A stretch of DNA of 64,000 bases from Candidatus Campbellbacteria bacterium (GCA_002747955.1 PDQZ01000008.1:79425-143424); one strand, 5' to 3'. Counted from the first letter of the stretch, positions 36,569 through 57,932 are shown. The notes: generated by a model from the sequence alone, not told the origin. A program made the numbers and translations.

Positions 36569-36571
36569 TTT

Positions 36572-37611: not shown

Positions 37612-37614
37612 AAA

Positions 37615-37860
37615 TAGTAGAAATTGGCGAAAATCTTTGTCGATTTCATAAAAAAAAACGCTCACCGTATATCAAATACGTATCGCGATTTTTTTTATTC
37701 ATCTCCTCGATTTTCATCCAATTTCTGCTATTTTTTAAAAACTTGAAAAACAAGAGGCTAACTTTGTCAGCTGCACAAAAAAACCCCTCACCGTATGTGT
37801 TATTACGGTGAGGAGATTTTTTGTTTAGCTGACAAAGTTATTCGCTCATTTTTTAGGTTT
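37615..37860. repeat. about 240-bp structured noncoding element after rplK (copy A of a duplicated element), containing nested hairpins and a terminator
   Basis: Shares ...aaattggcga...ttcataaaaaaa-cgctca-cgta...acgtatcgcgatttttttatt...cgattttcatccaatttctgct-ttttaaaaacttgaaaaacaag-gctaactttgtcagctgcacaaaaaaa-cccctcaccgtatgt with 57405..57660. Confidence 0.7.
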
Positions 37861-37861
37861 T

Positions 37862-39775
37862 TTAGAATACTTGGATGGCTGTCATGATAATCGGTGTCTT
37901 GTTAGTTTTCTTCAAAAGCAACAACTCCACCTTTGACCTTATTTCTTCTTTTAGTTTATCCACATCGATTTTTCCACCTTCAGCAGAGTGAATTTCATCG
38001 GCCACCAGTTTTGAAACAATAATCCTTGTCTCGCTTAAAAGTTCTTGTGAATCTCGCAGGTAAACAAATCCTCTTGATAAAATATCTGGAGATTTTTGAA
38101 TTCTCTTTTTTGCCATATTGATTAGAACTACAATATTTACAAAACCTTCTTTGGCAAGCAAGCTTCTGTCTGCAATCACGGCTTTTTGTGATTCTGTAAT
38201 TGTAAATCCATCAACCAAAATTGGTTCTGAAGGAATTTTTTGTTTCAAAACTTTTACTTTTTCAGGACCTGAAATTTCAATAATATTTCCATTGTCAGGC
38301 ACGATTGTGTTTGATTCTGGAATGTTTGCATAGTTTACAACCAAGTTTCTGTGTTCTTTAAGCATTGAGTGGAAACCATATCCTGGCACAAAAAATGTTG
38401 GGTTTACAGTTTTAGCAATCCAAATCATTTCTTCTGCGTTTCCGTGTCCTGTTGAGTGAATCTCGGCTGTTCTATAAGTAATCAGCTTCAAGTCATTTCT
38501 TAAAAGTTGATCTTTCAGTTTCCTGATTGAAATTTCGTTTCCAGGAATTGCTGATGAAGACAAAATCACAGTATCTCTTTTGTTAAGTTTGATAAACTTG
38601 TGATCACCACGGGCCATTCTTGGTAAGGCTGCGTATTCTTCACCTTGACCTCCAGTACAGATTACCACAATTTTTTCCGGTGGATATTTATCAACATCTT
38701 TCATTTGAATTAAAGTGTCTTTTTTAGGTTTATAGTATCCAGCTTTAATAGCAATATCCATATTTGTTTTAATAGATCGACCTTCCAAAACAACTTTTTT
38801 TCCTAAGTCTTCGGCGTTTTTGGCAAAGGACATCATTCTTTCAAACTGTGAAGCAAAAGTTGCAATAATAACTCTTGATTTTGCGTCTCTGATGATGTTC
38901 CCAACATTTCTTTGAATTGTTGGTTCTTGGATTGACCAACCTGGCTGTTCAACGTTTGTTGAGTCAGAAATTAAAAGAACATTTTTTTCTTTTGCAATTC
39001 GAGCCCAGTTTTCTTTTTCAAAATCAGCTACTTCTCCATCTGTGTGAGCAAGTTTTAAGTCACCAGTTACAACAATATTTCCGTGTTCTGTTTTCATTGA
39101 AAATCCCATTGATTGAGGAATTGAGTGGGTTACGTGAAAAAATTCAAAAGAATAATCTCCAATTTTGATTTTATCTTGTGCATCAACAACTTTAATATCG
39201 ATCGGATCTAAAGAGGGGAACTCTTCCATTCTTTTTTTGATCAAAAGTGATGAAAGCTCTCTTGTATAAATTGGCGGGTTTCCAAGTTTTGTCATTAAAA
39301 AGGGAATACCTCCAATGTGGTCTAAGTGAGCGTGAGTAATAATAATTCCTTTGATTTTTTCTTTGTTTTCAACCAAGTATTTTACGTTTGGAAGTTTATA
39401 GTCGATCCCTGGTGTTTCTTCTTCGGTTGTAAACTCAAAACCAACATCGGAAATATAAATGCAGTTCTTGCTCTCAATGGCAAACATATTTCTTCCAACC
39501 TCTTCAAAACCACCAATAGTTAAAACTCGAACTTCGTTTCCTTTGATTTCTGGAATATTTTTTAAAGGAGTTTTAAAGTCAAAGTCCATTTTGTAGTTTT
39601 GCGGAACTTGTTTTGGAAATCCACCTGCTTTTTTTGAAGCAAGAGATTTTGTTTTCTTTCGTCCTGAATTTTTTGAGTTTCCAAAATTGTTTTTTTTTGA
39701 ATTTTTTGAATTTTTATTATATTTATTTTTATGAAAATTACTTTTGTTATTTTCTTTATTGTTATTTTTATTCAT
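37862..39775 (-). CDS. rnj: ribonuclease J (metallo-beta-lactamase/beta-CASP) with a Lys/Asn-rich N-terminal extension
   Basis: GIIITHAHLDHIGGIPFL (HxHxDH), beta-CASP motifs; ATG chosen at MNKNNNKEN (the longer ORF to 39853 starts at TTG). Confidence 0.8.
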   Translation of the reverse strand: MNKNNNKENNKSNFHKNKYNKNSKNSKKNNFGNSKNSGRKKTKSLASKKAGGFPKQVPQNYKMDFDFKTPLKNIPEIKGNEVRVLTIGGFEEVGRNMFAIESKNCIYISDVGFEFTTEEETPGIDYKLPNVKYLVENKEKIKGIIITHAHLDHIGGIPFLMTKLGNPPIYTRELSSLLIKKRMEEFPSLDPIDIKVVDAQDKIKIGDYSFEFFHVTHSIPQSMGFSMKTEHGNIVVTGDLKLAHTDGEVADFEKENWARIAKEKNVLLISDSTNVEQPGWSIQEPTIQRNVGNIIRDAKSRVIIATFASQFERMMSFAKNAEDLGKKVVLEGRSIKTNMDIAIKAGYYKPKKDTLIQMKDVDKYPPEKIVVICTGGQGEEYAALPRMARGDHKFIKLNKRDTVILSSSAIPGNEISIRKLKDQLLRNDLKLITYRTAEIHSTGHGNAEEMIWIAKTVNPTFFVPGYGFHSMLKEHRNLVVNYANIPESNTIVPDNGNIIEISGPEKVKVLKQKIPSEPILVDGFTITESQKAVIADRSLLAKEGFVNIVVLINMAKKRIQKSPDILSRGFVYLRDSQELLSETRIIVSKLVADEIHSAEGGKIDVDKLKEEIRSKVELLLLKKTNKTPIIMTAIQVF

Positions 39776-39868
39776 AATTTTTAATTTAATCAAGTATTGT
39801 TTTAAAAACAATATAAAGTTATAAAATAAAATATTTTTTATTTTATAACTCAAACTGTTTTTAAGTTT

Positions 39869-41545
39869 TTAAAAACTAATAATGTTACCAATATTTACAT
39901 ACCAGTTGTTTATATCTGAAAATCTAAGCTCTCTTGAATCAATTGTTTTTCTTTCAAAACCTTTTACTCTTTTGTCTACTATATAAATATAGTCTGGTGA
40001 ATAAATCGGAATAAATAAATTTTCTTTTTGAATTTCTTCTTTAATAACTTGATATTTTTTTTCTCTTTCTTGTTTTGGAATAACTTTTCTTAAATCAGCC
40101 ACTGCCTGGTCAATTTTTTTGTTATTTGTTTTTGAAATATTAATTTGTGGGTCATCAATTTGAGATGAGTGAAACAGGAAATAATAATCAGGAATCACAG
40201 ATGTTTGATATCCATACAAAGCCATGTCAAAAGATCTTGGTCTGATTACATTTTGAATTAAGTCATTGTTGGTGTAGTGGGTAATGTTAACTCCAATTCC
40301 GTATTCTGTTAAACTTTTAGAAATTTCAGAAGCTATATTTTTAAATTCTTCAGAATTTAAAACAGCTAAATTAATTCTAAATTCTTTTTTGGTTTTAGAA
40401 TTTGTTAAAATATTTGTTTGATCGTTTTTTTGGTAACCAGCTTCTTTAAAAAGTTTTTCAATGTCTTTTTTGTCTGTTTTTTGTTCAACAAAAGTATCAA
40501 AGTATAAAGGGGAGTTTGTTGTTTTTGCATATCCAGATAAGTTTTCTTTCACAATCTTTTCTCTATTTATAATTTTTGAAATAGCTTCTCTTGCTTTTAA
40601 AGAAGATAAGTTTTGGTTTTTTGGACTTAAAAATAGACCAAAAATTCTTGTTGAGTTTAGATTCTGAACTCCATATTTTGAATCATTTTCTTGATTTACA
40701 AATTGAGAAATCTCTTCTGGTGGAACTGCAAAAATATTTTTAATTACTTTTTCATTTGAATAAAGCAAAGATTTTTTGTAAGCTTCTAGGTTGTTGAAGA
40801 CAACCAAGTTAACCTCATCTAAATAAGCTTTTTTGTCAAAATAATAAGGGTTTCTTTTTAAAACATATTTTTTAATTTTTCCAAACTGGTCATCTCTTGT
40901 TGTTTTATCAATCTTGAAAGGGCCAGAACCAATAGGGTGGTTGTTAAGTTCGAAGAAAGGAAATTCAGCTGGTGTAATATCTTGCCAAAGTTTTTTGGGT
41001 AAAATATACAAATTTGCCAATGTGTTTTTGAATTGATCGTATTCTTTAGGAAGAATTATTTTTAAATTTTTCTGATCGATTTTTTCTGTTTCAACATCAA
41101 TCCATTCACTAAAATAAGGTGATTGGATTAAAGGGTCTTGGATTTTCTCGATTGTAAAAATAATATCATCACTTGTTAACAAATCTCCATTTGAAAATTT
41201 TACATTTTCTTTGATTGTTAAAGTGTAGGTCTTACTATCTTCTGAAATTTTAAAATCAGCAATGTTTGGTACAATTTCTTGTTTTTGGTTGATTTTTAAA
41301 ACGGTTGAATAAATCAAAGGTAAAATGTCTTTATCTGTTTTTGAAGTTGCTAAAACTGGGTTTACATTTCTTGGGTTTTTTCCAATTATAATTTCTGTAA
41401 TACTTCCACCATTTTTTGGCACTTCTTCTAAATATCTTCCTGTGAAACTTGAAACTATAATCAAGATAATCAAAGGAATAGTAAAAATTAAAATGTTTTT
41501 TTTGTTTTTTAAAATTATTTTTTTTAAACTAATTGTTTTTGTCAT
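39869..41545 (-). CDS. ABC-type substrate-binding protein, family 5 (peptide/nickel-like), membrane-anchored
   Basis: N-terminal TM, about 520-aa bilobed SBP-like sequence (FDMALYGYQTSVIPDYYFLFHSSQ); no adjacent permease genes. Confidence 0.45.
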   Translation of the reverse strand: MTKTISLKKIILKNKKNILIFTIPLIILIIVSSFTGRYLEEVPKNGGSITEIIIGKNPRNVNPVLATSKTDKDILPLIYSTVLKINQKQEIVPNIADFKISEDSKTYTLTIKENVKFSNGDLLTSDDIIFTIEKIQDPLIQSPYFSEWIDVETEKIDQKNLKIILPKEYDQFKNTLANLYILPKKLWQDITPAEFPFFELNNHPIGSGPFKIDKTTRDDQFGKIKKYVLKRNPYYFDKKAYLDEVNLVVFNNLEAYKKSLLYSNEKVIKNIFAVPPEEISQFVNQENDSKYGVQNLNSTRIFGLFLSPKNQNLSSLKAREAISKIINREKIVKENLSGYAKTTNSPLYFDTFVEQKTDKKDIEKLFKEAGYQKNDQTNILTNSKTKKEFRINLAVLNSEEFKNIASEISKSLTEYGIGVNITHYTNNDLIQNVIRPRSFDMALYGYQTSVIPDYYFLFHSSQIDDPQINISKTNNKKIDQAVADLRKVIPKQEREKKYQVIKEEIQKENLFIPIYSPDYIYIVDKRVKGFERKTIDSRELRFSDINNWYVNIGNIISF

Positions 41546-41625
41546 AGATAAAATAAGTTATTTTTAAAAATAACTGGTTATTTTTTTAATACATTTATAA
41601 TATAGAATTATTATTTAAATAATAA

Positions 41626-41859
41626 TTATTTAACAAGTAAAGCCAAAACTGCAGTTAGGAAAAACAAAATTGCTAAAAATGTTGTAAATTTTAACATTGT
41701 TTTTTCAAAACCTCTTCTTGTTGAAATGTGGTTTGAAGAATCAGCTCCTCCAAATCCTGCTCCCAATCCAGCACCTGTTTGTTGTAGCAAAACAGAAATG
41801 ATAAGTAGTACTGAAATTACTATTTGTACTGTCGGTAATATTTTAGTTATAAATTCCAT
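41626..41859 (-). CDS. secG: preprotein translocase subunit SecG
   Basis: VISVLLIISVLLQQTGAGLGAGFGGADSSNHISTRRGFEKTMLKFTTFLAILFF matches SecG. Confidence 0.75.
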   Translation of the reverse strand: MEFITKILPTVQIVISVLLIISVLLQQTGAGLGAGFGGADSSNHISTRRGFEKTMLKFTTFLAILFFLTAVLALLVK

Positions 41860-41932
41860 ATAGGTAACATTTTAACAAAATAAGATTTTTTTGCAACAAG
41901 TAAATAAGAAGTTTAAAACATAAACTTGAATG

Positions 41933-42030
41933 AAACAAAGCCCGAAATTTTTGATAAGTTTTTTTGAAAAAACAAAAGGCGTTGCCTTTTGTTTTTTCAA
42001 AAAAACTTATCAAAAATTTCGGGATTTGTT
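41933..42030. repeat. long perfect-palindrome hairpin element (family member)
   Basis: aaacaaagcccgaaatttttgataagtttttttgaaaaaacaaaaggc-gttg-gccttttg...cgggatttgtt. Confidence 0.7.
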
Positions 42031-42031
42031 C

Positions 42032-42670
42032 TCAATGTGCCATTGCAATAAAATAAACTCTTTTTGCTCCTGCTTTTTTTAAAACTTTTTCGGCCTCCTT
42101 TAAAGTGGATCCTGTTGTATAAATATCATCAAACAAAATTACATTTTTATTTTTTAAATCAAAACCTTTTTTAACATCAAAAGCATTTTTAACATTTTCT
42201 TTTCTTTTTTTTATATTTTTCATTTTGTTTTGAGGTTTGGTGTGTTTTTTCTTTTTTAAAATATTTTCAATTCTAACAAAATTAGAGCCGCCCATTTTTT
42301 CAAAATATCTTAAAATCAAAATATTTTGACTATAAGTTCTTTTCAGTCTTCTTAATATGAAACAGGGAACTGGAACTAGTACAAAATCATTAAAATTTTT
42401 TTCAAATTTTAACTTTTCCTGAATATCAAAAATATTTTGATACAAAATCTGAGCAAAGACGAAAGCTGGTTTTTTATTTTTGTGAAATTTCAATTGCCAA
42501 AACATTTCTTTGATTTTTTTATTTTTATAGTCTAAAAAATAAAAAAGTTTTTCGTCACTTTTAAAAATTAATTTATAATTAATTTTTTTTGCTTGCAATT
42601 TTTGTGGTAAAAAAATATCTAAATATTTTTTTAATATTTTTAAAAAATCTTTTTTTCTGTTATAATACAT
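42032..42670 (-). CDS. comF: ComF-family phosphoribosyltransferase-domain protein
   Basis: C-terminal PRTase motif VILFDDIYTTGSTLKEAEKVLKKAGAKRVYFIAMAH. Confidence 0.65.
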   Translation of the reverse strand: MYYNRKKDFLKILKKYLDIFLPQKLQAKKINYKLIFKSDEKLFYFLDYKNKKIKEMFWQLKFHKNKKPAFVFAQILYQNIFDIQEKLKFEKNFNDFVLVPVPCFILRRLKRTYSQNILILRYFEKMGGSNFVRIENILKKKKHTKPQNKMKNIKKRKENVKNAFDVKKGFDLKNKNVILFDDIYTTGSTLKEAEKVLKKAGAKRVYFIAMAH

Positions 42671-42688
42671 AAGATAATAAAACTAATT

Positions 42689-43786: not shown

Positions 43787-43836
43787 AAAAAACACGATTT
43801 TGGCAAACACAACCACACAGCCAAAATCGTGTTTTT
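43787..43836. terminator. intrinsic terminator after pilM
   Basis: aaaaacacgattttggc-aaacacaaccacaca-gccaaaatcgtgttttt. Confidence 0.6.
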
Positions 43837-43852
43837 ATTTATTCTAAATTAA

Positions 43853-43891
43853 GGGCCGAAAATTTGACCCCACCCAACCACCCAGGTCAAA
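43853..43891. repeat. short member of the palindromic hairpin family
   Basis: gggccgaaaatttgacc-ccacccaaccaccca-ggtcaaattttcggccc. Confidence 0.6.
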
Positions 43892-43970
43892 TTTTCGGCC
43901 CACCCAAACCTTTAAAGTTATCAACATTTTTTCTTAACTTATCTTTCTTTTTTTGATAAAATGAATATGT

Positions 43971-46080: not shown

Positions 46081-46122
46081 CAGAAAAAACTTAAAGCTGT
46101 CGCTTTAAGTTTTTGTGTCTTG

Positions 46123-46829: not shown

Positions 46830-46849
46830 AATAGAAAAAAATCAAAAAT

Positions 46850-46898
46850 CAAGGCCTTGCCTTGAGATAGGCAAGGCCTATCTCAAGGCAAGGCCTTG
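46850..46898. repeat. 49-bp perfect palindrome (triple-hairpin/cruciform capable), copy 1 of 2 identical copies
   Basis: caaggccttgccttgagataggc-aag-gcctatctcaaggcaaggccttg; identical to 60313..60361 with about 8 bp of shared flanks. Confidence 0.8.
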
Positions 46899-47012
46899 TT
46901 TTTTCTTTTTTAAATTCAAAAAATATGCTATTATTTATATTAAGATAAGTTAAAATAGGCTAAATAGATCTGTTATTGACAAATTGAAATAAAGTAGTAT
47001 AATAAAATAAAC

Positions 47013-47285
47013 ATGAATCAAAAAAATAATAATTTAGATGTGGAACAAACAGTAAAAATAATTTCATTTTTTATCCAAAACTTAGATGTGGAAGATGAAA
47101 TCAAAGCGTTCTTTTTTGACTATATTCAGAAAATAGAAGACCCTGAAGAAATGCAAAACTTTTTTGATTTTTTAGAAAATACTTATGTAAATCAAGAAAT
47201 GGTTAAAAAAGAAAAAGATTATATTCAGAAGATAGAAGAGATTGACAGCCAAACTATTAAAGAGCTTAATAAAATTTTAAAATAA
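47013..47285 (+). CDS. hypothetical small acidic protein
   Basis: 90 aa, Glu/Asp-rich; immediately upstream of the 1025-aa gene. Confidence 0.3.
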   Translation: MNQKNNNLDVEQTVKIISFFIQNLDVEDEIKAFFFDYIQKIEDPEEMQNFFDFLENTYVNQEMVKKEKDYIQKIEEIDSQTIKELNKILK

Positions 47286-47289
47286 TATT

Positions 47290-50200
47290 ATGAACGAGAA
47301 ACAACCAAAAAAAATATCAAATGCAGAAGTACCTAAAATAAAAGGTGGTTTTGAAATTGAAGAAATAAAAATGGAGAAAGGGGATGTTGTTTTGAAATCA
47401 GAGAATAGTAATGGTAAATTAAGCGCTGAACAAAAAGATAAAATTTATTTAGAACAAATTAAAAATTTACCAGACACAGAAAAGGGTAGAGAATTAAAAA
47501 AAAAATATTCAAAACTTTTAAGTTCTAGTGCAAAAGTTGATGAAAATAAAAAAGAGCAAAAAGAAATTTCTAATAGTTTAAAATATGTCAAAGAACAGTT
47601 TGAAGAAGGGAAAAATTTAAAAAATAGCAAAGACTTAAAAAACTTTGTTGATAGTTTAACTTTAGATGAGAAAATCAAAGCAAGGCAGATTTTTTATGAT
47701 ATTCAAAGACAAAAAAAGAAAGGAAAATTGGAAAAAGAAATAGAAAAAAAACAAATTGAAGATAATCAAGATGGTGTTTTTGAAGTGCAAGAAGATGAGG
47801 AGAATTTATTTGGTTATAAAAAACTTAATCGAGTTTTAGACAAAGATGAAGGCAAAAAAGTTAAAGAAAAACTAGAAAAACTTCAAGGACAAGAGAAAGA
47901 AAGAAGAAAAGAAAATATTCAAAGTGTGAAAGAACAAAAAGAAGAAGAAAAGAAAAATAAAAAAGGTTTTTTCAAAAGACTTTTTTCAAAAAACACTTTA
48001 AAGTTTGGAGTAGAAACAGCAAAAGATATTGGTTTAAAAATGTCTGGACTGAAGGCTTTTACCCTTTGGAGAGAGAGCAGACATTTTCAAAAAAATAAAA
48101 AAGCTGAAATTGAAAGTTTTAAAGATAATAATATTCCAGAACACATTTCAGATCTTGTAGATGTAATAAAAAATGGTGACAATTCAGAAGAAAACAAAGT
48201 TTTAAGAATTGAACTTAAAAATAAACTAAGAGAAGAAAAAGAAACAAATCCTGAACAATACAAAAAAGCAGTTGAGGTTTTGTTTAAAAGCAGAAACCAA
48301 AAAAATAAGGTAAAAGAAGAAGTTTTAAAAAACTTGGAAAAAACATATTCAAAAGAAGAACTTGATAGAAAAAGAGAGCTTGCAAAAGAGTCAATTAACA
48401 CAGCTTTGATTTGGATGGGTGCAATAACTGGTGGTGCAACAGCTTATGGTGCTGTTATAACAAGAACTTTCAACAATATTGGTTTTACAGCTGCAAAACA
48501 ATTTGAAAACAAAGACGGAAAAATTCAATTTTCTGAAATGAAAAATATTTTCAAAAATATTTCAAAAAATTGGCAAGAGAAAAGCGCTGTTGGGAAAATT
48601 TCAACTGCTGTGATGTATGGAGCACTTGGATACATGCTTTACAACGGTTACGATATGTCAAAAAATGGAACCATTGATGAATACAACACACTTGTAGGAA
48701 AAATTATTCGCGGGGAACTTCCTTATTATCCAACTGGAGATGAAAAAAGTGTGAATACAGGAAAAATTGAGACAACTTCAGACATAGAAGCTGATGGAAA
48801 AGTTCCGTTTGCTCCTTTAAAAGATGCAGTCGATAGACAAGAAGCACTTGCAGATTATAAGCAAAATGTTGCAGAGGCAAAAAATACTTATAAAATAAGT
48901 GTGGAAAAAGACAGCTCAATTTGGAAAGTTTTAGAAAGAGAAGACAGTTTTTGGGAAAAATTAGGAGCTGAAAAATTAACAGATCAACAAAAGGAAAATG
49001 TAATTGGAAATATTGTAAAAAGGCTTCAAAATAATTCTGAATTTGCAGATTTAAAAGAGGAATTTTTAAATTTAAATTCAAATGAAAACATAGATTTGAT
49101 GAAACTTCAAAAAGTGATTGATCAAGACATCGAAGTTAAAGGGCAAAAATTTGATAACTTAATTCAAAGAGCAGATATGCTTGATGGACATAAAGATGTT
49201 TTGTCATACAAAGAAGCTGATATTGATCAATATTTACACCCAAAAACAGCCCAAGAAGTTACTGTTATTGAAAATTCTGATCCTAATGATATTATTGAAA
49301 AAACTCATGACCCAAAAAATGCTTGGAAAACTTTGGATTTGAAAAATGCTGGAAAAGTTCACAATGGTTTTTATGAAATCACTTCAAAAGATGGAGCAAA
49401 AGGAATGTGGGGCATTTTACGAGAAGAAGTTTTCAAAAATGCCATGAATTTAGATAAACCAAAAGGAGCTGAGCTTTCTTTGGATTATGATGAATTAAAC
49501 AACCTAACAGCAAACACCATTGAAAGAATCAAATATTTAATAGCTCACGATAAAGTTTTTGCAGAAAAAATCGGAATTTATAATGTAACAGAAATTTACC
49601 CAGGTCAAAAGTTAAATGTTGAACTTATTAGAGATAAAATTTTAAACAAAAGGTTTGGAAACTATGAAACTATGGTTGACCGAGCTCGAGATTTTGATAA
49701 GCCAAATATTACTTTTGCTGAACAAAACGCTATTGAGCAAGTACATACACAGGTTGAAATAAAACCAAAACCAAGTGCTGTATACCAGCCAACAATAACT
49801 CAAACACCAGAAGGGGAAGTGGAAATTTCTAATGTTGCTTATGACGATGAAAAACCAGTTTCTGTTTCACAAGTTGAGGTTGAAATGCATCCAGATGTTC
49901 AAAGTACTGGAGTTCAAAGTGGAACAGAAGCAGTTTATGATCCAAACAATCAAAACATTTCTAGTTATCCAGAAGAAACAATGATAAATCAAAATATAAA
50001 TGTTGAGCAAGGTGTTCAAAATCAGAATCAAGAAATAACAAGCAATGAAAAACCAGTTTCTGAACAAAAAATGAAAGTTCCAGAAAAAGACTTTTACAAA
50101 GATGCAAAAGAAATACCATATAAAAATCAAGGTATTATAGTAGGAACAACAAGTGATGGGATAAATTATGCAATCCCAACAAAAGTTTTAGAAGATGCAT

Positions 50201-50367
50201 ATAAAAAATTAAGCCCTGATGAAGTGATGGAAAAAGTATATAATCCTGATGATTTATTAAATAAATATACTGATTTAAACACAAAATCAAAAGGAATTGA
50301 TTTTCTAAAAAGACAGGCACAAGAAAGCATTGATTGGGAAATAAAAAGAAGTGGTAATGATAGGTAA
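47290..50367 (+). CDS. large hypothetical membrane protein (charged coiled-coil N-terminus, two central TM helices, about 550-aa C-terminal domain)
   Basis: Lys/Glu-rich first 350 aa; TM pair around SINTALIWMGAITGGATAYGAVI and VGKISTAVMYGALGYMLY; no recognisable catalytic motif. Confidence 0.35.
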   Translation: MNEKQPKKISNAEVPKIKGGFEIEEIKMEKGDVVLKSENSNGKLSAEQKDKIYLEQIKNLPDTEKGRELKKKYSKLLSSSAKVDENKKEQKEISNSLKYVKEQFEEGKNLKNSKDLKNFVDSLTLDEKIKARQIFYDIQRQKKKGKLEKEIEKKQIEDNQDGVFEVQEDEENLFGYKKLNRVLDKDEGKKVKEKLEKLQGQEKERRKENIQSVKEQKEEEKKNKKGFFKRLFSKNTLKFGVETAKDIGLKMSGLKAFTLWRESRHFQKNKKAEIESFKDNNIPEHISDLVDVIKNGDNSEENKVLRIELKNKLREEKETNPEQYKKAVEVLFKSRNQKNKVKEEVLKNLEKTYSKEELDRKRELAKESINTALIWMGAITGGATAYGAVITRTFNNIGFTAAKQFENKDGKIQFSEMKNIFKNISKNWQEKSAVGKISTAVMYGALGYMLYNGYDMSKNGTIDEYNTLVGKIIRGELPYYPTGDEKSVNTGKIETTSDIEADGKVPFAPLKDAVDRQEALADYKQNVAEAKNTYKISVEKDSSIWKVLEREDSFWEKLGAEKLTDQQKENVIGNIVKRLQNNSEFADLKEEFLNLNSNENIDLMKLQKVIDQDIEVKGQKFDNLIQRADMLDGHKDVLSYKEADIDQYLHPKTAQEVTVIENSDPNDIIEKTHDPKNAWKTLDLKNAGKVHNGFYEITSKDGAKGMWGILREEVFKNAMNLDKPKGAELSLDYDELNNLTANTIERIKYLIAHDKVFAEKIGIYNVTEIYPGQKLNVELIRDKILNKRFGNYETMVDRARDFDKPNITFAEQNAIEQVHTQVEIKPKPSAVYQPTITQTPEGEVEISNVAYDDEKPVSVSQVEVEMHPDVQSTGVQSGTEAVYDPNNQNISSYPEETMINQNINVEQGVQNQNQEITSNEKPVSEQKMKVPEKDFYKDAKEIPYKNQGIIVGTTSDGINYAIPTKVLEDAYKKLSPDEVMEKVYNPDDLLNKYTDLNTKSKGIDFLKRQAQESIDWEIKRSGNDR

Positions 50368-50499
50368 AATAAAAAGTAAGTCAAAAGGCTTGACTTTTTA
50401 TTTTTTTATGTTACAATATGGTTAGTTTTGGTTAGGAGTAATTTAAGTATTTCTAATTCGTTCTTTAATTTTAATGCCTTAACCGGCAGGAGTTCAGAG

Positions 50500-50793
50500 A
50501 TGAACAATTTTAAAAAAGGTTTAGCAATAACCTTAATTATTGCTGTTATGGGGTCTTTGATTGGTTGTTCATCAGCCAATCAACGGATCCATGAGATTCA
50601 AACCTTGAATTCCAAAACTTCTACCATTGCAAATAAACAAGCAATGGTGGAAAGCAACCTTACACAAATTAAAAATTCGTGTAATGGTTGTTCAATGGGA
50701 ACTTTAAGAAATACCCACCGAGCAAATCAAATTTCCGCTGCAGTTAACGCAGCAATCGGAGAAAAGATCGCGGAAAAAGCCAACGATCTTTGA
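50500..50793 (+). CDS. small lipoprotein
   Basis: AGGAG SD then MNNFKKGLAITLIIAVMGSLIGCSS (lipobox LIGC); start and 5-prime UTR paralogous to the gene at 51070. Confidence 0.45.
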   Translation: MNNFKKGLAITLIIAVMGSLIGCSSANQRIHEIQTLNSKTSTIANKQAMVESNLTQIKNSCNGCSMGTLRNTHRANQISAAVNAAIGEKIAEKANDL

Positions 50794-50863
50794 TCTTAAA
50801 ACAAATTATAAACCCAGACAGGAGGCTGGGTTTTTTTATTTTTAAATATGTTCACAAAAAGAC

Positions 50864-50891
50864 TTGACAAATAAATTATTTATGATACAAT
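50864..50891 (+). promoter_or_regulatory. strong sigma70 promoter TTGACA-N16-TGaTACAAT
   Basis: cttgacaaataaattatttatgatacaat; drives a 170-nt leader before the gene at 51070. Confidence 0.55.
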
Positions 50892-50959
50892 ACTATTGTG
50901 ATTATAAATCACACAGTTCTTTAAAAAAGTTTCATTTGAATTCCAAAATAAATTTTAAA

Positions 50960-51030
50960 ATGACCTATGCAGAATTTTGCAAAAAAGTAAACATAAAAAA
51001 CTTTTTTCCAAAATTCTGCATAGCAGAGTT
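50960..51030 (+). promoter_or_regulatory. terminator-like hairpin in the leader (possible attenuator) upstream of 51070
   Basis: tatgcagaattttgcaaaaaag...aaacttttttccaaaattctgcata with about 22-bp arms, followed by gcagagtttttt, 40 nt before the SD. Confidence 0.4.
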
Positions 51031-51069
51031 TTTTAAATTTATAAAAGTCCGAAAGGACAGGAGTTCGTA

Positions 51070-52119
51070 ATGAACAATTTATTTAAGGGATTGATTACCA
51101 CCTTAACGGTAATCGTTTTTGCAGCAAATGCTCAGTCGCCTGAGCAACTTGTTGCAAACTATGTTGGGTCTTACACTGGTTGTAAAACCAGTGTAAGTCG
51201 AGTTTCTGGCTCGAAATTTCGGGTCAGTTCGTGCGGAAAAAGTAGAAACATTACTTTTTCTAAAAAAACAAGAGCTCGCATGGCGAAGGCTATGTCGAAC
51301 CCAAGTTCGAACGCGAGCCTATATAGCGTCTGTCCTCAACAGGCAGGTGCTATTCAGCAGCTTGCAGCTGCTAAGCCATCAAAAGTGGTTTATAAGGATC
51401 GGGTAGTGGAAAAGGTTGTTGTTCAAAAAAAACAGTTACCTTTTTTCAGCGTTCAAGATGAGCAGTTTGCTGATCTTGGATCGAACAAAAATGTTCGAGC
51501 AGCAACAACTGCTGTGATTAGAGGGGTTACTGCTGTTAGCGTAGCAGGGATCAATGCTGCTGCTTCTGAGCAATGGGGTGATGACTACGTGGCTGGACAA
51601 GCTGCGCGTCGTCCGAATCAGATTATTAATAATCTGAGTTCTTCTGCCACTGGTGGTAGTGTTGGTAATATTAATAATTCCAACACTAACTCCAACACTG
51701 CCTATGGTGGTGCTGGTGGTCAAGGTGGCGCTGGTGGAGCTGGTGGGATTGGTGTTGGTGGTACTAACATCAATACCAACAATAATAACAACACCAATAA
51801 CCCTACAACTACCATTAATCCACCGTCTGACTCCAACACTGATCCAGATAATGGAGGTTGGATCAACGATGGATCGTCTGATTCAAACACAAACCCATCA
51901 GCTGATGCTGGTGGAAGTGATTGGGTCAATGATGGAGGAGCTGCCGCTGATGACATCACTGGCAATGCTGACAACAGCAACACCGATGATGGTGCTTGGG
52001 GTGGTGGCTTCAATGACTTCAGTGACACAGGAAGTGTTGTTGAAGATAATAATTTTGCCGATAACGCAGGAAGTGATTTCGGCAACGGGGATGATGGAAA
52101 CACCAACCCTGATTGGTAA
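51070..52119 (+). CDS. secreted Gly/Asn/Thr/Asp-rich low-complexity protein (higher-GC gene)
   Basis: signal peptide MNNLFKGLITTLTVIVFAANAQS; GGAGGQGGAGGAGGIGVGG and N/T/D-rich tail; local GC clearly above the genome background. Confidence 0.45.
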   Translation: MNNLFKGLITTLTVIVFAANAQSPEQLVANYVGSYTGCKTSVSRVSGSKFRVSSCGKSRNITFSKKTRARMAKAMSNPSSNASLYSVCPQQAGAIQQLAAAKPSKVVYKDRVVEKVVVQKKQLPFFSVQDEQFADLGSNKNVRAATTAVIRGVTAVSVAGINAAASEQWGDDYVAGQAARRPNQIINNLSSSATGGSVGNINNSNTNSNTAYGGAGGQGGAGGAGGIGVGGTNINTNNNNNTNNPTTTINPPSDSNTDPDNGGWINDGSSDSNTNPSADAGGSDWVNDGGAAADDITGNADNSNTDDGAWGGGFNDFSDTGSVVEDNNFADNAGSDFGNGDDGNTNPDW

Positions 52120-52484
52120 TAAAATCCTAATTTTTTTAGGTAACGGCATTCAAGCGAATGCCGTTTTTTTTTGTGTCTGGTTTTTGGAGAGTGTGTGGCG
52201 GAAAAACTGGGTGGTTGTGTTTGTTTTTCCGCCTTTTATGTTTTTAAATTTGATAAATGATTAAAATAAAATTTGAAAAGTATTTTAACGTTAAAAAAAC
52301 AAGTAGAGCTCGGTGCCTTCGGCAGTGTATAAACTGTGCATTTCTATATTAGAGTAAACACTTGACTTTATGTCAATTATGTGTTAATATTCTCTCACAA
52401 TACATATTACGAAGGTAAACTCTTGACAAATTAAATAAATTTGTGTATAATATGTTTGTTATAAATATAAATTAATTAAAAAAT

Positions 52485-55262
52485 ATGAAAAAATTATTAC
52501 AAAAATTTAAAGCAATTATTGTTGCAATTGTTGCATTTTCAACAATTGTAGCAACTTCTTATGCTACAAGTTTGGGAACAACAACAAATATTCCTGAATT
52601 GCAAGCAAATGTTAAACACAACGGTTCTTGGAGTGGTTATAGCACATCAAGAAGTGTTAATAAGGGTGATGAACTTGTTTTTCAAATTCATGCTTATGCA
52701 AACGGTGGAGACGTTTCAGGTTTAAAAGCTAGAATGGATAATTTAAACCAAGCTACATTTAATGCAGGGCAAAGAATAACAGTTAAATCACAAGTTAGAG
52801 CATCAAATGCTTCATCAGAATCAGGTACAACAAGAATTACTTTTAACGATAAAGTAAAACTTGTTTACAAAGGTTACAAATGGGGAATTAGACGAGAAGG
52901 TGGAAACCCAGGAACTGAACAATTCAGAACTTTACCAAATGGACAAAACGGAGCTAAAACTTTAACTTCAAGTGGAGTTTATTTAGGATCTTTAAGTCAA
53001 GATTACAGAAGTAACTTATTGATTAGATTTGATGTTTTAGATGCTGGTACAACTCCTGCTGAAGAAGAAGCAACAGTTGATACTTTAAATGCAACAGGCA
53101 TTACAAAATACTGTGCTACACTAAAAGCAGATATTGACTTGAATGACGATGATTCTACAAATGTAAGATTTAAATACGGAACATCTTCAACAAATCTTTC
53201 AAAAGTAACTTCATATGTTACAAGAAATTCTGACGGAACTTATTCTGAAAGAGTTTGTGGTTTAAATGAAAATGAAAGATATTATTTCCAAGCTTATTTA
53301 AATAATGGAAATAAAGGTGGAATTAAAAATTTCAAAACAGATGAGGATAACAATCCTTCAAATGAGGACGCAACAGTTGATACTTTAAGTGCAACAGATA
53401 TTACAAAACACTGTGCAGAACTTAGAGCAGATATTGACTTGAATGATGATAATTCTACAAAAGTAAGGTTTAGATATGGAACATCTTCAACAAATCTTTC
53501 AAAAGTAACTTCATATGTTACAAGAAATTCTGACGGAACTTATTCCGAGAGAGTTTGTAATCTAAGTGAAAACAAAAGATATTATTTCCAAGCTTATTTA
53601 AATAATGGAAATAAAGGTGGAATTAAAAACTTCAAAACAGATGAGAATAACAATCCTTCAAATGAAGAAGCAGAAGTTACAACAAAACCCGCAACAAATG
53701 TTTCAGAACATTGTGCAACTTTGAAAGGTTATTTAAATTTAAACGATGACGATGATGCTCATGTTAAGTTTAAATATGGAACAGATAGAGATGATTTAAG
53801 CAAAACTGTTTCTGCTGGAACACTTTCAAGCAATGGAAATTTTTCAAAAAAAGTTTGTAGTTTGAAAAAAAACAAAAAATATTACTTTAAAGCTTACATC
53901 CCAGGTGGAGATGAAGGTTCTGTAAAATCATTTAGAACAGATAGAGATGATGATGATGACGATGATGATGATGATGATGATGATGATGATCAAAAAGCAG
54001 AAGTTACAACAAAAAGAGCAACAGAAATTTACTCATATACAGCTCAACTTAACGGGCATGTAGATGTAAATGATACAAAAGGTCCAAGAGTTTACTTTGA
54101 ATATGGAACTTCAAGAAGTAATTTAAACAAAGAAACTTCAAAAGCAAGAGTGCATGACAATACTTATTTCCAATCTATTGTTGGATTAACACCAAACACA
54201 AAATACTACTTCAGAGCAATGGTTGAAAATAGAGATGGAGATATTGTAGACAGAGGAAGTATTTTATCATTTGTTACAAAAAGACAAGTTGTTTCATCAA
54301 GAACAGATGCAATGACAACAGGAGCTTATGCTGGAACTTATGCAGCTGATGTTTATGGACAAATTGTAGGGGGAGACGAAAGAGTGATTTGTTATTTCAA
54401 ATACGGAAGAACAACTTCTCTTGGTTCAAGAACTGCTTCTGTTACAAAAAATGCAAACTTAAACAAGGCTTGTTCTGCAAAAATCAGAGGTTTGAAACCA
54501 GGAAAAAGATACTACTATCAAGCAGTTGTGGTTGATGATGGAAAAACTTATACAGGTGTGATTAAATCTTTTGTAACAAAAAGAGTTTATACAACACCAA
54601 GACCTAGCAAACCTAGACCTTCAAGACCGATTACAATTAACGAAAACGTTACTGTTTCTGTTGAAGAAGTGATCGAGGAAGAAGGTATCAGATTGCAAAT
54701 CAACAAATGGGTATCAGAAGATAAAGTTGATAACTATGGACTTGAAACAACAGCTCAAATTGGAGATACTGTTTACTATAAAGTTCGAGTTAAAAACAAC
54801 ACAAATGATGATATTGAAGATGTAACAGTTACAGATCATATTCCTTATGAACTTGAACTTTCAGATCAAAGAGACATTGACGATGATGTTGATAAATACT
54901 TAACTTGGAAAATTGGAAAGATGAGACCTGGTGAAGTAAGAACATTTATCACAGAGATGACTGTTTCTGACAAAGCTCAATATGGAGATACAATCTCATC
55001 AAGAGCTGAAATCTCAAAAGATGGAGAAAGAGAATATACAAACTATGTTGATATTTTCGTGAGAAGATCTGACCAAGCTGCATCTATTTTCGGAGCAAAT
55101 TCATCATTTTTCCCAACAAGTTTAATCGGATGGTTAAGTTTGTTAGCATTAATTCTTTTTATTGGATTTTTGATTTCAAAAATCTTTACAACAAAAAGAG
55201 AAAATGATATACAATTAGCTGCTTTCAAAGAAGCTCAAAGAGAAAGATATATTAGAAAATAA
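52485..55262 (+). CDS. cell-surface protein: signal peptide, five about 100-aa Ig/FN3-like tandem repeats, poly-Asp tract, DUF11-like domain, C-terminal TM anchor
   Basis: two near-identical 102-aa repeats (EEEATVDTLNATGITKYCATLKADIDLNDDDSTNVRFKYGTSSTNLSKV...) plus three diverged copies; DDDDDDDDDDDDDDDDD; GDTVYYKVRVKNNTNDDIEDVTVTDHIPYEL (DUF11-like); C-terminal LIGWLSLLALILFIGFLI. Confidence 0.55.
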   Translation: MKKLLQKFKAIIVAIVAFSTIVATSYATSLGTTTNIPELQANVKHNGSWSGYSTSRSVNKGDELVFQIHAYANGGDVSGLKARMDNLNQATFNAGQRITVKSQVRASNASSESGTTRITFNDKVKLVYKGYKWGIRREGGNPGTEQFRTLPNGQNGAKTLTSSGVYLGSLSQDYRSNLLIRFDVLDAGTTPAEEEATVDTLNATGITKYCATLKADIDLNDDDSTNVRFKYGTSSTNLSKVTSYVTRNSDGTYSERVCGLNENERYYFQAYLNNGNKGGIKNFKTDEDNNPSNEDATVDTLSATDITKHCAELRADIDLNDDNSTKVRFRYGTSSTNLSKVTSYVTRNSDGTYSERVCNLSENKRYYFQAYLNNGNKGGIKNFKTDENNNPSNEEAEVTTKPATNVSEHCATLKGYLNLNDDDDAHVKFKYGTDRDDLSKTVSAGTLSSNGNFSKKVCSLKKNKKYYFKAYIPGGDEGSVKSFRTDRDDDDDDDDDDDDDDDQKAEVTTKRATEIYSYTAQLNGHVDVNDTKGPRVYFEYGTSRSNLNKETSKARVHDNTYFQSIVGLTPNTKYYFRAMVENRDGDIVDRGSILSFVTKRQVVSSRTDAMTTGAYAGTYAADVYGQIVGGDERVICYFKYGRTTSLGSRTASVTKNANLNKACSAKIRGLKPGKRYYYQAVVVDDGKTYTGVIKSFVTKRVYTTPRPSKPRPSRPITINENVTVSVEEVIEEEGIRLQINKWVSEDKVDNYGLETTAQIGDTVYYKVRVKNNTNDDIEDVTVTDHIPYELELSDQRDIDDDVDKYLTWKIGKMRPGEVRTFITEMTVSDKAQYGDTISSRAEISKDGEREYTNYVDIFVRRSDQAASIFGANSSFFPTSLIGWLSLLALILFIGFLISKIFTTKRENDIQLAAFKEAQRERYIRK
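53061..53672 (+). repeat. two tandem near-identical 306-bp coding repeats inside the surface-protein gene
   Basis: 53061..53366 and 53367..53672 differ at only a few positions. Confidence 0.75.
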
Positions 55263-55641
55263 GTTAATTAAAAAACCTCATTTATTAAACTATTTGTAGG
55301 TTTTTTAATTTATGATATAATATAAGTATGGAAGAATTAAGAATTAAAACAGGCGCAGGATCTTCTGATAGTTCAAAAACAGAAGTTACGACTCCAGCAC
55401 AAACACAAACAGCAAGTATTGTAAATTCAAACTCAAAATTTTTACCACAAGATATAATCTTTTGGTCTGAGATGTTGATAATCACTTTTTTGATTTTGTT
55501 TTTGACATTTAAATATCTTGTTCCTAAAGAAAAATAGAAAGTTTGTTTGTGAAATTTAAAAAACTAAAATTAAATTTTAATTTTAGTTTTTTAATTTAAA
55601 ATTATTTTTTGATTTGGGTTTTTTGTGTTATAATTTGGAGC

Positions 55642-56100
55642 ATGGTTTATTTAAGTAAAGAGAAGTTAGAAGAACTTAAAAAAGAGTTGGAAGAATTAAC
55701 AACTGTTGGTCGAAAAGAAATTGCAGAAAGACTTGATGAAGCAAAATCTTATGGTGATTTGAAAGAAAATGCAGAGTATCATCAAGCTCGAGAAGATCAA
55801 GGAATTATGGAGTCAAGAATTTTAGAAATTGATGACATAATTAAAAATTCAGAAGTTTTTAAAAAACACAAAGCAACAAAGGTAGAACTTGGTTGTGTTG
55901 TTGTGATTGCTAAAAAAGGTTCAAAAGAAAAAAATACTTATGAAATTGTAGGCTCTCAAGATGCTGATATTTTTGCAGGAAAACTTGACAGACACGCTCC
56001 ACTTGCAGTTGCGATGATGGAAAAAACAGAAGGTGAGTTTTTTGATTTTAAAAAACCAAATGGTGAAAGTATAACTTATAAAGTTGTTGATATTAAGTAA
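55642..56100 (+). CDS. greA: transcription elongation factor GreA
   Basis: MVYLSKEKLEELKKELEELTTVGRKEIAERLDEAKSYGDLKENAEYHQAREDQ; start 8 nt after TGTTATAAT. Confidence 0.8.
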   Translation: MVYLSKEKLEELKKELEELTTVGRKEIAERLDEAKSYGDLKENAEYHQAREDQGIMESRILEIDDIIKNSEVFKKHKATKVELGCVVVIAKKGSKEKNTYEIVGSQDADIFAGKLDRHAPLAVAMMEKTEGEFFDFKKPNGESITYKVVDIK

Positions 56101-56118
56101 GTTTTTGGGGGAGGTTGA

Positions 56119-56213
56119 TTAAAGCTCGAAATTTTGAAGCAAATTTTTGGAAAAAAGAACAAGCGACGCTTGTTCTTTTTTCCAAAAATTTGCTTCAAAA
56201 TTTCGGGCTTTAA
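56119..56213. repeat. long perfect-palindrome hairpin element (family member) after greA
   Basis: aaagctcgaaattttgaagcaaatttttggaaaaaagaacaagcg-acg-cgcttgtt...aaatttcgggcttt. Confidence 0.7.
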
Positions 56214-56224
56214 TTTCCAACTTT

Positions 56225-56377
56225 CTTTTTTTAAATTTTGTGTTATAATACTTGCATAAAAGAAACCAGAGAAAGCGGGTATTTATAAATCCTGTCGAGG
56301 TTAACTTTGAGTTAAACTATTATCTGGCTTTCGTTATATGTATAATGAAAGTTTTTCTTTTATATAAATTATAAAAT
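56225..56377 (+). promoter_or_regulatory. putative structured 5-prime leader of the rplJ-rplL operon (L10 leader-like)
   Basis: TGTTATAAT promoter at about 56241, then a 130-nt untranslated leader with internal pairing potential before rplJ; typical location of the L10(L12) autoregulatory leader. Confidence 0.3.
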
Positions 56378-56869
56378 ATGGCAATTACAAGACAAAAAAA
56401 AGAAGAGATTTTTGCAAAAACAAAAGACATATTTGATAATTCAGAAGCATTAGTGTTTGTTCACTTTGATAAAGTATCAGGTGAAGAAATCAGAGATATG
56501 AGAGCCGAATTAGAAAAAGAAGGTGTTTCATATTCTGTAATCAAAAAAACATTGATTAAAAAAGCAGCTGATGAATCAAAAGTTAAAGGTTCATTGCCAG
56601 AACTTGAAGGTGAAATTGCTGTTGCATATTCAACAGAAGATATGACAGCACCTGCAAGAAAAGTTAAAGAATTTTCAAAAACTCTAAAAGACAGAATTAG
56701 TATTGTTGGAGGATTTTTTGAAGGGGAATTTAAAAATCAAGCAGAAATGACAGAAATCGCAAATATTCCATCACTTGATGTATTAAGAGGAATGTTTGTA
56801 AATGTTATTAACTCACCAATTCAAAGATGTGCAATTGCACTTGGACAAATTGCAGAGAAAAAATCTTAA
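56378..56869 (+). CDS. rplJ: 50S ribosomal protein L10
   Basis: MAITRQKKEEIFAKTKDIFDNSEALVFVHFDKVSGEEIRDMRAELEKEGVSYSVIKKTLIKKA. Confidence 0.9.
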   Translation: MAITRQKKEEIFAKTKDIFDNSEALVFVHFDKVSGEEIRDMRAELEKEGVSYSVIKKTLIKKAADESKVKGSLPELEGEIAVAYSTEDMTAPARKVKEFSKTLKDRISIVGGFFEGEFKNQAEMTEIANIPSLDVLRGMFVNVINSPIQRCAIALGQIAEKKS

Positions 56870-56898
56870 AAATAAATTATAAATTATAAAAAAATATT

Positions 56899-57402
56899 AT
56901 GACAGAAGAAGTAAAAAACACAACAGAAGAAGTTGTAGAAAATACTGAAGCACAAGCTACAGAAGAAGTTAAAACAGAAGAAGTTAAAGAAGAAGCTCCG
57001 GCAGTAGCTGAAGAAACAAAAGAAGTTGAAGTTCCAGCAGAATTTAAAGACATTGTAGAAAAAATTGAAAAAATGTCAGTGATGGAATTAAATGAACTTG
57101 TAAAAGTTTTTGAAGACAAATTTGGAGTTTCAGCAACAGCAGTTGCAGCAGGACCAGCAGCTGGTTCAGATGCAGCAGGAGCTGAAGAAAAATCAGAATT
57201 TGATGTTGAATTAACAGATGCAGGAGCTTCAAAAATCGGAGTTATTAAAGCTGTAAAAGCAGCATTGGGACTTGGACTAAAAGAAGCAAAAGATGCAGTA
57301 GATGGAGCACCATCAGTTTTGAAAGCAGGAGTGAAAAAAGAAGAAGCAGAGGAGATGAAAAAAGCGTTAGAAGAAGCAGGGGCAACAGTTACCCTAAAAT
57401 AA
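56899..57402 (+). CDS. rplL: 50S ribosomal protein L7/L12 with an about 45-aa acidic N-terminal extension
   Basis: C-terminal ...[71 protein letters not shown]; the extra N-terminal segment [45 protein letters not shown] has no alternative in-frame start. Confidence 0.85.
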
Positions 57403-57404
57403 AA

Positions 57405-57660
57405 AACTTGAAAAATTGGCGACTTGCTTTGTTGCCTTCATAAAAAAATCGCTCAACGTAATAACACATACGTATCGCGATTTTTTTATTCGGCGCCGCG
57501 CAATTCATCCAATTTTTCAAGTTTTTTTAGTGTTTAAACAAATCTTTGTCGATTTTCATCCAATTTCTGCTGTTTTTAAAAACTTGAAAAACAAGCAGCT
57601 AACTTTGTCAGCTGCACAAAAAAATCCCCTCACCGTATGTCCAATATGGCTCGGGGTTTT
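57405..57660. repeat. structured noncoding element after rplL (copy B of the element after rplK), with an internal partial duplication
   Basis: aligned blocks as described for 37615..37860; the CATCCAATTTCTGCTGTTTT motif recurs at about 57555 and about 57815. Confidence 0.7.
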
Positions 57661-57932
57661 TTTGTTTGCTTCCGCGTTATCCATCTTGTTTTTTGAGTTT
57701 TTTAAAACACCAGAAATTAGCACCAAGCTTTGTTGGCTTCGTGTAAAAATATTTTCAACGTACTTCAAGTACGTCTCAAATATTTTTCACTCGCCGCCTC
57801 GCTCGGCATCCAATTTCTGCTGTTTTGACTCCAGAAAAGGTTAAAAGTTGAACTAAAAAATATAAAAAATCAAGTTTTAAATGTTTATAAAAAATTTGAT
57901 TATTTTTTTATATATTTTATCATTTAGAAAAT

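Follow-up and report, generated by a model that had tools for sequence, protein, structure and literature searches.

A palindromic repeat family, probably mobile or formerly mobile, behind rplK and rplL in a Candidatus Campbellbacteria genome

Described palindromic repeats and the units behind rplK and rplL

Miniature inverted-repeat transposable elements, or MITEs, are small (less than about 500 bp) and non-coding, and occur as multiple dispersed copies that are present or absent at orthologous sites; in-frame insertion, as in the Rickettsia palindromic elements (RPEs), terminator-like structure, as in SPRITE, and clustering of the copies are all known among them (PMC10969869). The RPEs are palindromes of about 100-150 bp, which lack a transposase of their own, are found in many diverged copies in a reduced genome and have inserted both between genes and in frame within housekeeping genes that stay open (PMC10969869). 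SPRITE, BOX and RUP of Streptococcus pneumoniae and the enterobacterial ERIC are small non-autonomous hairpin repeats at operon ends and in 3' untranslated regions (UTRs). The core of SPRITE resembles a Rho-independent terminator and the elements bunch, inserting into one another or alongside, while ERIC elements are about 126 bp long and are co-transcribed with the flanking genes (PMC10969869). REP units (20-40 bp) carry a conserved GTAG or CGTC head (PMC3733652), and stem-loop arrays of the TIGR-Tas type have been reported in Candidate Phyla Radiation (CPR) bacteria (PMC12045711). The DNA considered here, referred to as the window, is a 64-kb stretch of a metagenome-assembled genome (MAG) of Candidatus Campbellbacteria (Paceibacterota, CPR), in which two noncoding stretches, one behind the ribosomal protein (r-protein) gene rplK and the other behind rplL, are built from units of a hairpin repeat that can be set beside these elements. 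All positions are counted along the window.

With a probability of about 60%, both stretches are clusters of a multi-copy palindromic repeat family of the Paceibacterota, with a unit of about 120 bp, which is non-autonomous, mobile or formerly mobile and MITE-like, and whose copies now probably act as operon-end terminators. The family is apparently undescribed. An earlier note on this DNA had proposed a duplicated structured element of about 230 bp; the repeated element is real, but its unit is about 120 nt long rather than 230, and each supposed element consists of tandem units of a single family (full units 119-123 nt). These are listed below with their covariance-model (cmsearch) scores on either strand.

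37612..37733, + strand: U1, directly after the rplK stop codon; 118 bits on the + strand, 34-43 on the - strand
37739..37861, + strand: U2; 70-75 bits on the + strand, 60-64 on the - strand
57404..57524, + strand: U3, beginning 1 nt past the rplL stop codon; 114 bits on the + strand, 42 on the - strand
57530..57576, + strand: U4, resembling U1 but lacking the interior, recognised by alignment with U1-U2
57580..57700, + strand: U5; 111-119 bits on the + strand, 25 on the - strand
57705..57825, + strand: U6, the last in the array; 108-113 bits on the + strand, 26-27 on the - strand

Two units make up locus 1 (37612-37861), while locus 2 (57404-57825) holds three full units and one internally deleted unit, with 4-5 nt between neighbours. 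The five full units have a mean column identity of 73% in a MAFFT alignment, in which the motif CTTTGT is invariant. The basal stem of U3, as read from the sequence, is a perfect 13 bp (CTTGAAAAATTGG/CCAATTTTTCAAG), and 33 of the 35 consensus pairs are Watson-Crick pairs in U1. What the earlier note took for an internal partial duplication in the second stretch is indeed an extra copy, but one that represents the internally deleted unit U4, in which a short direct repeat (TCGATTT) marks the fusion of the 5' part through CTTTGT with the 3' arm, and which gives a weak partial nhmmer match (57550-57578); the locus itself runs on to 57825. The recurrence of a motif near 57815 is also real, and corresponds to the 3' arm of U6; the string CATCCAATTTCTGCTG occurs at 57557 and 57807 and, with one mismatch, at 37715. 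The long strings quoted as shared by the two stretches run across the junction of U1 and U2. For about 95 nt this junction is almost the same as that of U4 and U5, and a dimer has therefore been copied or converted between the two loci. U5 and U2 are 78% identical overall and 95% identical over 56 nt of their 5' half. U2 has been palindromised, its 3' arm being the reverse complement of its 5' arm (64-nt arms, 80% complementary), and since the whole 3' arm now complements the 5' arm, the asymmetric loops of the other units have been erased and a strong bidirectional terminator has been created. No open reading frame (ORF) is consistently open across the 13 full copies of the family recovered from the window and other genomes. 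When the stop-free ORF at 57416-57844 was translated and compared with 1.84 billion representative proteins, two TPR-repeat proteins were the only matches and both are spurious; annotated proteins thus do not commonly contain the element.

Fold, covariation and dispersed copies

The two stretches are homologous and structured with nested hairpins, as had been claimed for them, which is borne out by their alignment and by folding z-scores of -12 to -14 against shuffles on either strand. Each unit forms a long, imperfect, rod-like hairpin of five helices, comprising the basal stem P1 (13-16 bp), the short stems P2 and P3, the A-run/T-run helix P4, with four invariant A-T pairs, and the apical stem-loop P5. 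Between the helices lie conserved motifs that are not complementary to one another (GCG/CATC, CTTTGT/CCTCG, TTC/TTC and TCAC/(G)CTCA). When the 13 copies were aligned independently with MAFFT, the RNAalifold structure contained 35 pairs, 27 of which show compensatory double changes. Paired cells amount to 90.3%. Shuffling the columns lowers this to 65.7%, with 0 of 500 shuffles matching the real alignment, and sliding the partners by 1-3 columns lowers it to 34-51%; covariation scores 0.645 in the alignment and 0.204 after shuffling. Every copy has a terminal stem of 13-16 bp, with covariation at 14 of the 16 pairs. The first reading by eye, a local hairpin around CTTTGT, was dropped in favour of the long-range P2/P3 pairing, which is better supported by covariation. 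Aside from the remodelled U2, the window copies each retain 30-33 of the 35 Watson-Crick pairs, yet are only 52-78% identical to one another, and it is this persistence of pairing despite divergence that indicates that the hairpin is actively maintained.

The numbers of G.U (14) and A.C (18) oppositions in the stems are similar, an A.C here being a G.U on the opposite strand, and there is therefore no sign of selection for pairing in an RNA made from one given strand. The pattern fits a DNA palindrome, arm-to-arm conversion of the kind visible in U2, or selection on a master copy for a mobilisation hairpin. A possible, though distinctly less probable, explanation is a noncoding RNA family, structured and read from the + strand, consisting either of trans-acting small RNAs (sRNAs) or of protein-sponge RNAs, in which the units would be paralogous sRNA genes and the loops CUUUGU/CCUCG, UCAC/CUCA and GCG/CAUC would bind a protein or mRNAs. 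Such a family would be in keeping with the strong covariation and conserved unpaired motifs across deeply diverged genomes, the hairpins kept in the diverged window copies, the model scores that favour one strand (about 110 against 25-45 bits) and the co-orientation of eight of the ten known sites with their neighbouring genes; the C-rich CCUC motif can also be likened, as an interpretive reading, to an anti-Shine-Dalgarno sequence. Against it stand, besides the balance of G.U and A.C, one copy that lies antisense inside the essential gene ileS and another that is antisense between two + strand genes in the related genome L004, as well as the lack of both a recurring promoter-like site upstream of the copies and a conserved context. 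The distribution is furthermore patchy, the nearest relatives lacking the repeat, and U2 has been retained despite the loss of all the conserved loops. A scan of Rfam, which the earlier note had proposed as a check, matched no family to the repeat, and in E-value mode gave only sub-threshold noise of the long-hairpin (miRNA) type at both loci.

A profile built from the window units recovered copies with nhmmer in three related GTDB loci (L003, L004 and L013), and two covariance models, R1 (9 copies) and R2 (13 copies), were run over 81 sources (1.37 Mb), the loci of relatives having been sampled around rplK or rplL, with the exception of L201-L203. The 13 full copies occupy ten sites in five genomes: five copies in the window, three each in L003 and L004, and one each in L013 and L041. 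With R1 and R2, one strand of every copy reaches about 50-120 bits and the other scores much lower. The sites outside the window are as follows.

L003: directly after rplK, as in the window
L003: upstream of ileS, after a hypothetical gene
L003, 10201-10320: within ileS, in frame and antisense, between the catalytic and anticodon-binding regions
L004: between the DsbD and SIMPL genes, both on the + strand, and antisense to both
L004: after the SHMT gene
L004: a divergent intergenic region
L013 and L041: the nusG-rplK spacer in each

The copy in ileS of L003 adds 36-40 residues to the protein and is missing from 15 orthologues, including the IleRS of the window. In both L003 and L004, the neighbours of the copies are unrelated housekeeping genes. 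The site 3' of rplK is filled only in the window and L003, and the nusG-rplK spacer only in L013 and L041. The sampled loci of L002, the closest relative, of L006, the nearest to L003, and of L005, the nearest to L013, yielded no copy, and because the last two lack the repeat the carriers do not form a clade. None was found in about 11 kb of additional source-genome sequence (L201 and L204), in the nearest RNase J relatives (L202 and L203), where rplK is not adjacent, or elsewhere in the window with the search filters off. The other matches in the window are generic long terminator hairpins, which score 25-40 bits equally on both strands, lack the asymmetric motifs and constitute a separate family. 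A scan of viral contigs with a pattern for the 5' core returned 14 loci, none of which fits the model. A metagenome-wide scan with the 3' arm pattern CATCCAATTTYTNNNRTTTT was discarded, as the pattern proved too permissive and its matches (at least 119 loci) were all due to chance according to blastn and nhmmer. Mean identity between copies is 65% within genomes versus 51% between genomes, with the three L004 copies sharing 77-86%, and carriers share only about 50% identity in NusG, so that the family spans a very deep divergence. A 98-nt hairpin in L223 (10559-10656) scores 41 bits with the repeat model and has a similar basal stem (CAGATTTGG/CCAAATCTG) without the conserved loops, and may be a degenerate or related element.

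The repeat shares with a generic MITE its small size, at 119-123 nt, its non-coding nature and its multiple dispersed copies, with presence and absence at orthologous sites (ileS, the 3' side of rplK and nusG-rplK). As with the RPEs, it belongs to a reduced genome, and its copies are palindromic, diverged, intergenic or, in ileS of L003, in frame within a housekeeping gene. Its host is, however, a CPR bacterium and not Rickettsia, it is intragenic in one of 13 copies, has no frame consistently open, bears a terminator-like apex and forms tandem arrays, and the likeness is an analogy by description without any claim of membership. With SPRITE, BOX, RUP and ERIC it has in common the small non-autonomous hairpin at operon ends, but its termini are variable while asymmetric internal motifs are conserved, its stems show extensive compensatory change and its divergence is far deeper. 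Like the REP/REPIN-RAYT systems it combines hairpins of maintained complementarity with clustering, a possible strand bias and the lack of an unambiguous target-site duplication (TSD). The unit is, however, 120 nt long and has no conserved GTAG or CGTC at its ends (a GTAG in U1 is due to chance), and no RAYT gene was seen in the sampled DNA, and the scanned ORFs contain no Y1/HUH transposase domain. The repeat is accordingly classed as working like the RPE, ERIC and SPRITE MITEs and is assigned to no named family, because searches of the window and of the DNA beside the copies gave no mobilising enzyme, the termini are not conserved and the TSDs are ambiguous. Tandem stem-loops in a CPR genome, whose stems vary but are palindromic throughout, recall the TIGR-type tandem stem-loop guide-RNA arrays (PMC12045711), but such an array has next to no probability here. 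Neither strand of any of the 13 copies contains box C (RUGAUGA) and CUGA is only sporadic, no Nop-domain or other Tas-like protein is encoded among the window ORFs, the conserved loops and variable stems are the opposite of what spacers would present, and the units are about 120 nt long and also occur as single dispersed copies, one of them inside ileS. With its defining motifs (box C/D and the Nop protein) missing, this candidate was rejected.

The absent rplA, gene order and operon ends

The genes preceding the two clusters belong to what is classically the rplKAJL cluster. The separation of the rplK and rplJ-rplL blocks by about 19 kb and the absence of rplA, both pointed out in the earlier note, are confirmed within the window by Pfam, Rfam and tblastn. 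The genes concerned are the following.

36389-36568, + strand: secE (Pfam SecE)
36572-37135, + strand: nusG (Pfam NusG/KOW)
37189-37611, + strand: rplK (Pfam Ribosomal_L11), which closes the secE-nusG-rplK block (36389..37611)
37862..39853, - strand: the RNase J gene (Pfam RNase_J domains), convergent with rplK; its product is 100% identical to CSB11_01585 of a Candidatus Campbellbacteria MAG
55609-56100: greA, about 19 kb beyond the secE-nusG-rplK block
56248-56366, + strand: L10_leader (Rfam RF00557, 45.9 bits), preceding rplJ
56378-56869, + strand: rplJ (Pfam Ribosomal_L10)
56899-57402, + strand: rplL (Pfam L12); its L7/L12 product likewise matches a protein of that MAG at 100% identity
56248..57402, + strand: the L10 leader-rplJ-rplL operon, intact and separately regulated
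57933 (start): the gene for an ATP-grasp enzyme (Pfam ATP-grasp_4), the next gene after U6

Neither tblastn with two L1 queries nor a Pfam scan for the Ribosomal_L1 domain in 60 larger ORFs (mostly at least 110 aa) revealed L1 in the window, and at gathering thresholds Rfam 15 matched only a tmRNA, two tRNAs and the L10 leader across its whole length. A search of GTDB with an L11 query yielded 80 loci, in all of which NusG, L11, L1, L10 and L12 were tabulated. In the roughly 50 closest loci of Paceibacterota/Parcubacteria, nusG-rplK is present, rplA is absent and there is no rplJ-rplL within 10 kb, whereas rplA lies directly 3' of rplK in the other CPR lineages and the non-CPR bacteria tabulated. 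The absence of rpL1 defines the OD1-L1 group of Parcubacteria (PMC5220378; bioRxiv 10.1101/2022.01.07.475337), and the window and the ~50 related rplK loci, which lack L1 and come from within the Parcubacteria/Paceibacterota, agree with this definition. The absence of rplA and the separation of rplK from rplJL are thus old, already published traits of the OD1-L1 lineage that are independent of the repeats.

A further proposal in the earlier note is that the duplicated sequence was left behind when a rearrangement split rplKAJL and took out rplA; the sequence would then mark the breakpoints. This proposal is for this reason very improbable. It draws on the position of homologous sequence exactly at the 3' ends of rplK and rplL and on the dimer junction common to both loci. 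The split and the loss are, however, lineage-wide and older than the divergence of the ~50 lineages, most of which are without the element, and the repeats can therefore not be their footprint. In addition, a breakpoint would be expected between rplK and rplJ, upstream of the latter, while the second cluster lies downstream of rplL, and the element is found elsewhere in other genomes. There is no L1 remnant: as the earlier note had also allowed for a fragment of rplA, this candidate was considered and rejected for lack of any tblastn similarity, and the element is not a fragment of any other known gene.

The suggested tie to r-protein operons fares no better. A cis-acting RNA of these operons, in the form of an autoregulatory protein site or a 3'-UTR stability element at rplK and rplJL that perhaps offsets the lost L1 regulation of the L11 operon, would explain why the window copies occur only after rplK and rplL and why four of the ten sites touch rplK, those of the window and L003 lying after it and those of L013 and L041 between nusG and rplK. 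It is nonetheless improbable. Most relatives without L1, including the closest (L002), lack a copy in the vicinity of rplK, the eight closest rplL loci are all without one after that gene, and rplJL retains its own L10 leader. The six other sites flank unrelated genes or sit in ileS, the same family being found inside ileS, between the DsbD and SIMPL genes and after the SHMT gene. An r-protein leader would keep a constant position relative to its gene across relatives; the repeat does not, as it is located 5' of rplK in two genomes and 3' of it in two. Occurrence as a generic repeat at many unrelated loci, which the earlier note held would speak against its own reading, is what is found across genomes, because the family occupies unrelated loci in those other than the source genome; within the window there are only two sites.

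In relatives without the repeat, an ordinary bidirectional intrinsic terminator follows rplK at 20-60 nt and another likewise follows rplL, and because of these closely placed terminators both genes can be taken to end transcription units across the clade. The window repeats occupy exactly the 3' positions of these plain terminators. Terminator-like sites are predicted on both strands within U2 (37786-37815), and its apex would form a strong terminator for both directions between rplK and the RNase J gene, which converge on it. The repeat resembles ordinary bidirectional terminators in its apex of A-run, GC hairpin and T-run and in its placement after the last gene of an operon or between convergent genes. 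It differs from them in its length of about 120 nt, three extra covarying helices, conserved internal loops and tandem arrangement, and in having homologous copies in other genomes, some with an A/T run of only 4 nt.

Operon ends are also places at which assemblies stop. In an independent assembly of the source organism (L001, a Logan SRR6011893 contig of 1556 bp) the break falls within U2, and several of the contigs of the relatives L219, L221, L222 and L226 end 30-170 nt past rplL, at terminators. In these genomes, short-read assemblies seem to break up at operon ends because of hairpin repeats and terminators. Two G+C-rich hairpins in the window (AAGGCCTTGCCTTGAGATAGGC...; 46838-46911 and 60305-60373), 95% identical and 13.4 kb apart, each lie past a gene end, and L204, from an independent assembly of the same organism, begins within the second. 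A second family of palindromes, of about 95 nt, is represented at 14576-14674, 15203-15285, 20620-20720, 25932-26046, 36211-36298, 41934-42030 and 56118-56214. Its members have a conserved base (AAAGCCCGAAATTTT ... AAAATTTCGGGCTTT) and an apex of A-run, GC hairpin and T-run, and most lie directly after stop codons. Their arms are 95-100% complementary, whereas the copies are merely 62-76% alike, which suggests that palindrome arms are homogenised in the source genome.

Other features of the window include three dispersed 300-nt repeats (9303-9602, 11721-12020 and 13445-13744), 76-87% identical, among genes for peptidoglycan-binding and unknown proteins, and a tandem repeat of 2 x 300 nt (53039-53638) inside a 925-aa protein with DUF11 domains. 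The IleRS of the window (16950-20618; about 1220 aa) carries a histidine-phosphatase domain (His_Phos_1) at residues 517-697 within its catalytic domain, and the same RHGE-type insert is seen in the orthologous IleRS of L003 (7493-11164). RNase III is encoded at 30489-31175. A block of four ORFs (90, 1025, 121 and 349 aa) at 47013-52119 has no Pfam or NCBIfam match, and further ORFs that could not be annotated lie at 256-810, 10297-11669, 12929-13426, 28394-29497 and 59479-60240.

Proposed mobility of the repeat and its meaning for CPR genomes

If the repeat is a mobile or formerly mobile palindromic element, its targets would be A/T-rich sites, possibly TA, that coincide with or adjoin stop codons, and new copies would land beside existing ones. 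Copies abut or overlap the upstream stop codon at rplK and rplL in the window, at rplK and one ORF in L003 and at nusG in L013 and L041, and the family forms head-to-tail clusters. Insertions at stop codons would be tolerated because the codon is regenerated, an element starting with A restoring TAA, and in compact genomes such sites may represent the tolerated target. In the A/T-rich source genome, transcripts of rplK and rplL would now terminate at the apex of A-run, GC hairpin and T-run, which would also give them their 3'-end hairpin. The conserved asymmetric loops may form a recognition surface for a trans-acting protein, and arm complementarity may be kept by selection, by arm-to-arm conversion, of which U2 provides an example, or by both.

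Several findings weigh against mobility of the MITE kind. No transposase, recombinase, reverse transcriptase or HUH enzyme was found in the 64-kb window or beside the copies of L003 and L004, and no REP/RAYT, IS200/IS605 or IS110 partner was identified in the ORFs scanned. TA...TA flanks two of the three youngest copies, those of L004, but TA is its own reverse complement and lies here in A/T-rich flanks, and there is no unambiguous TSD. The terminal sequence varies from copy to copy and from genome to genome, with conservation only within L004, while the internal loops are conserved; this is the reverse of a MITE defined by its terminal inverted repeats, and looks more like a protein-binding RNA or single-stranded DNA (ssDNA) structure. 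The loops, which give the unit an orientation, are of all its features the least expected in a simple MITE. The force that maintains the hairpins of the diverged window copies could be a function for the host. Within about 75 kb of the source genome, copies occur at two sites only, both after r-protein genes, and the four of ten sites that touch rplK are more than random placement predicts (p ~1e-3 as a rough estimate, from sampling that was centred on rplK and rplL). Insertion within a gene is known from a single case, ileS of L003, or one of 13 copies. As regards the apex, the terminator scan flagged U2 only, and the A-run, hairpin and T-run of the other units were recognised by inspection.

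These features can tentatively, and with much less likelihood than the MITE-like family, be brought together in a structure-defined CPR element, whose loops (GCG/CATC, CTTTGT/CCTCG and TCAC/CTCA) would be read by a trans-acting protein as ssDNA or RNA, whose arms would be kept by conversion, and which would have been domesticated as modular terminators and 3' hairpins, preferentially at highly expressed translation operons. If this were true, it would imply a new mechanism of mobilisation or maintenance and a new class of host-useful repeats in a lineage that is thought to be nearly free of repeats. The conserved asymmetric loops in combination with freely covarying stems are the sole feature of the family that could repay experiments.

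The genomes of CPR bacteria, or Patescibacteria, are regarded as extremely streamlined, and a literature search found no publication that pairs MITEs with CPR/Patescibacteria or describes such repeats there. With the missing rplA and the split cluster shown to be unconnected to the repeats, a false lead has been removed. A hairpin repeat that spreads in CPR genomes would be of note for its landing in frame in an essential aminoacyl-tRNA synthetase and for taking the place of ordinary terminators at the ends of r-protein operons. By breaking short-read assemblies at operon ends, the repeat would affect MAG assembly, annotation, operon prediction and screens for noncoding RNAs in the CPR.

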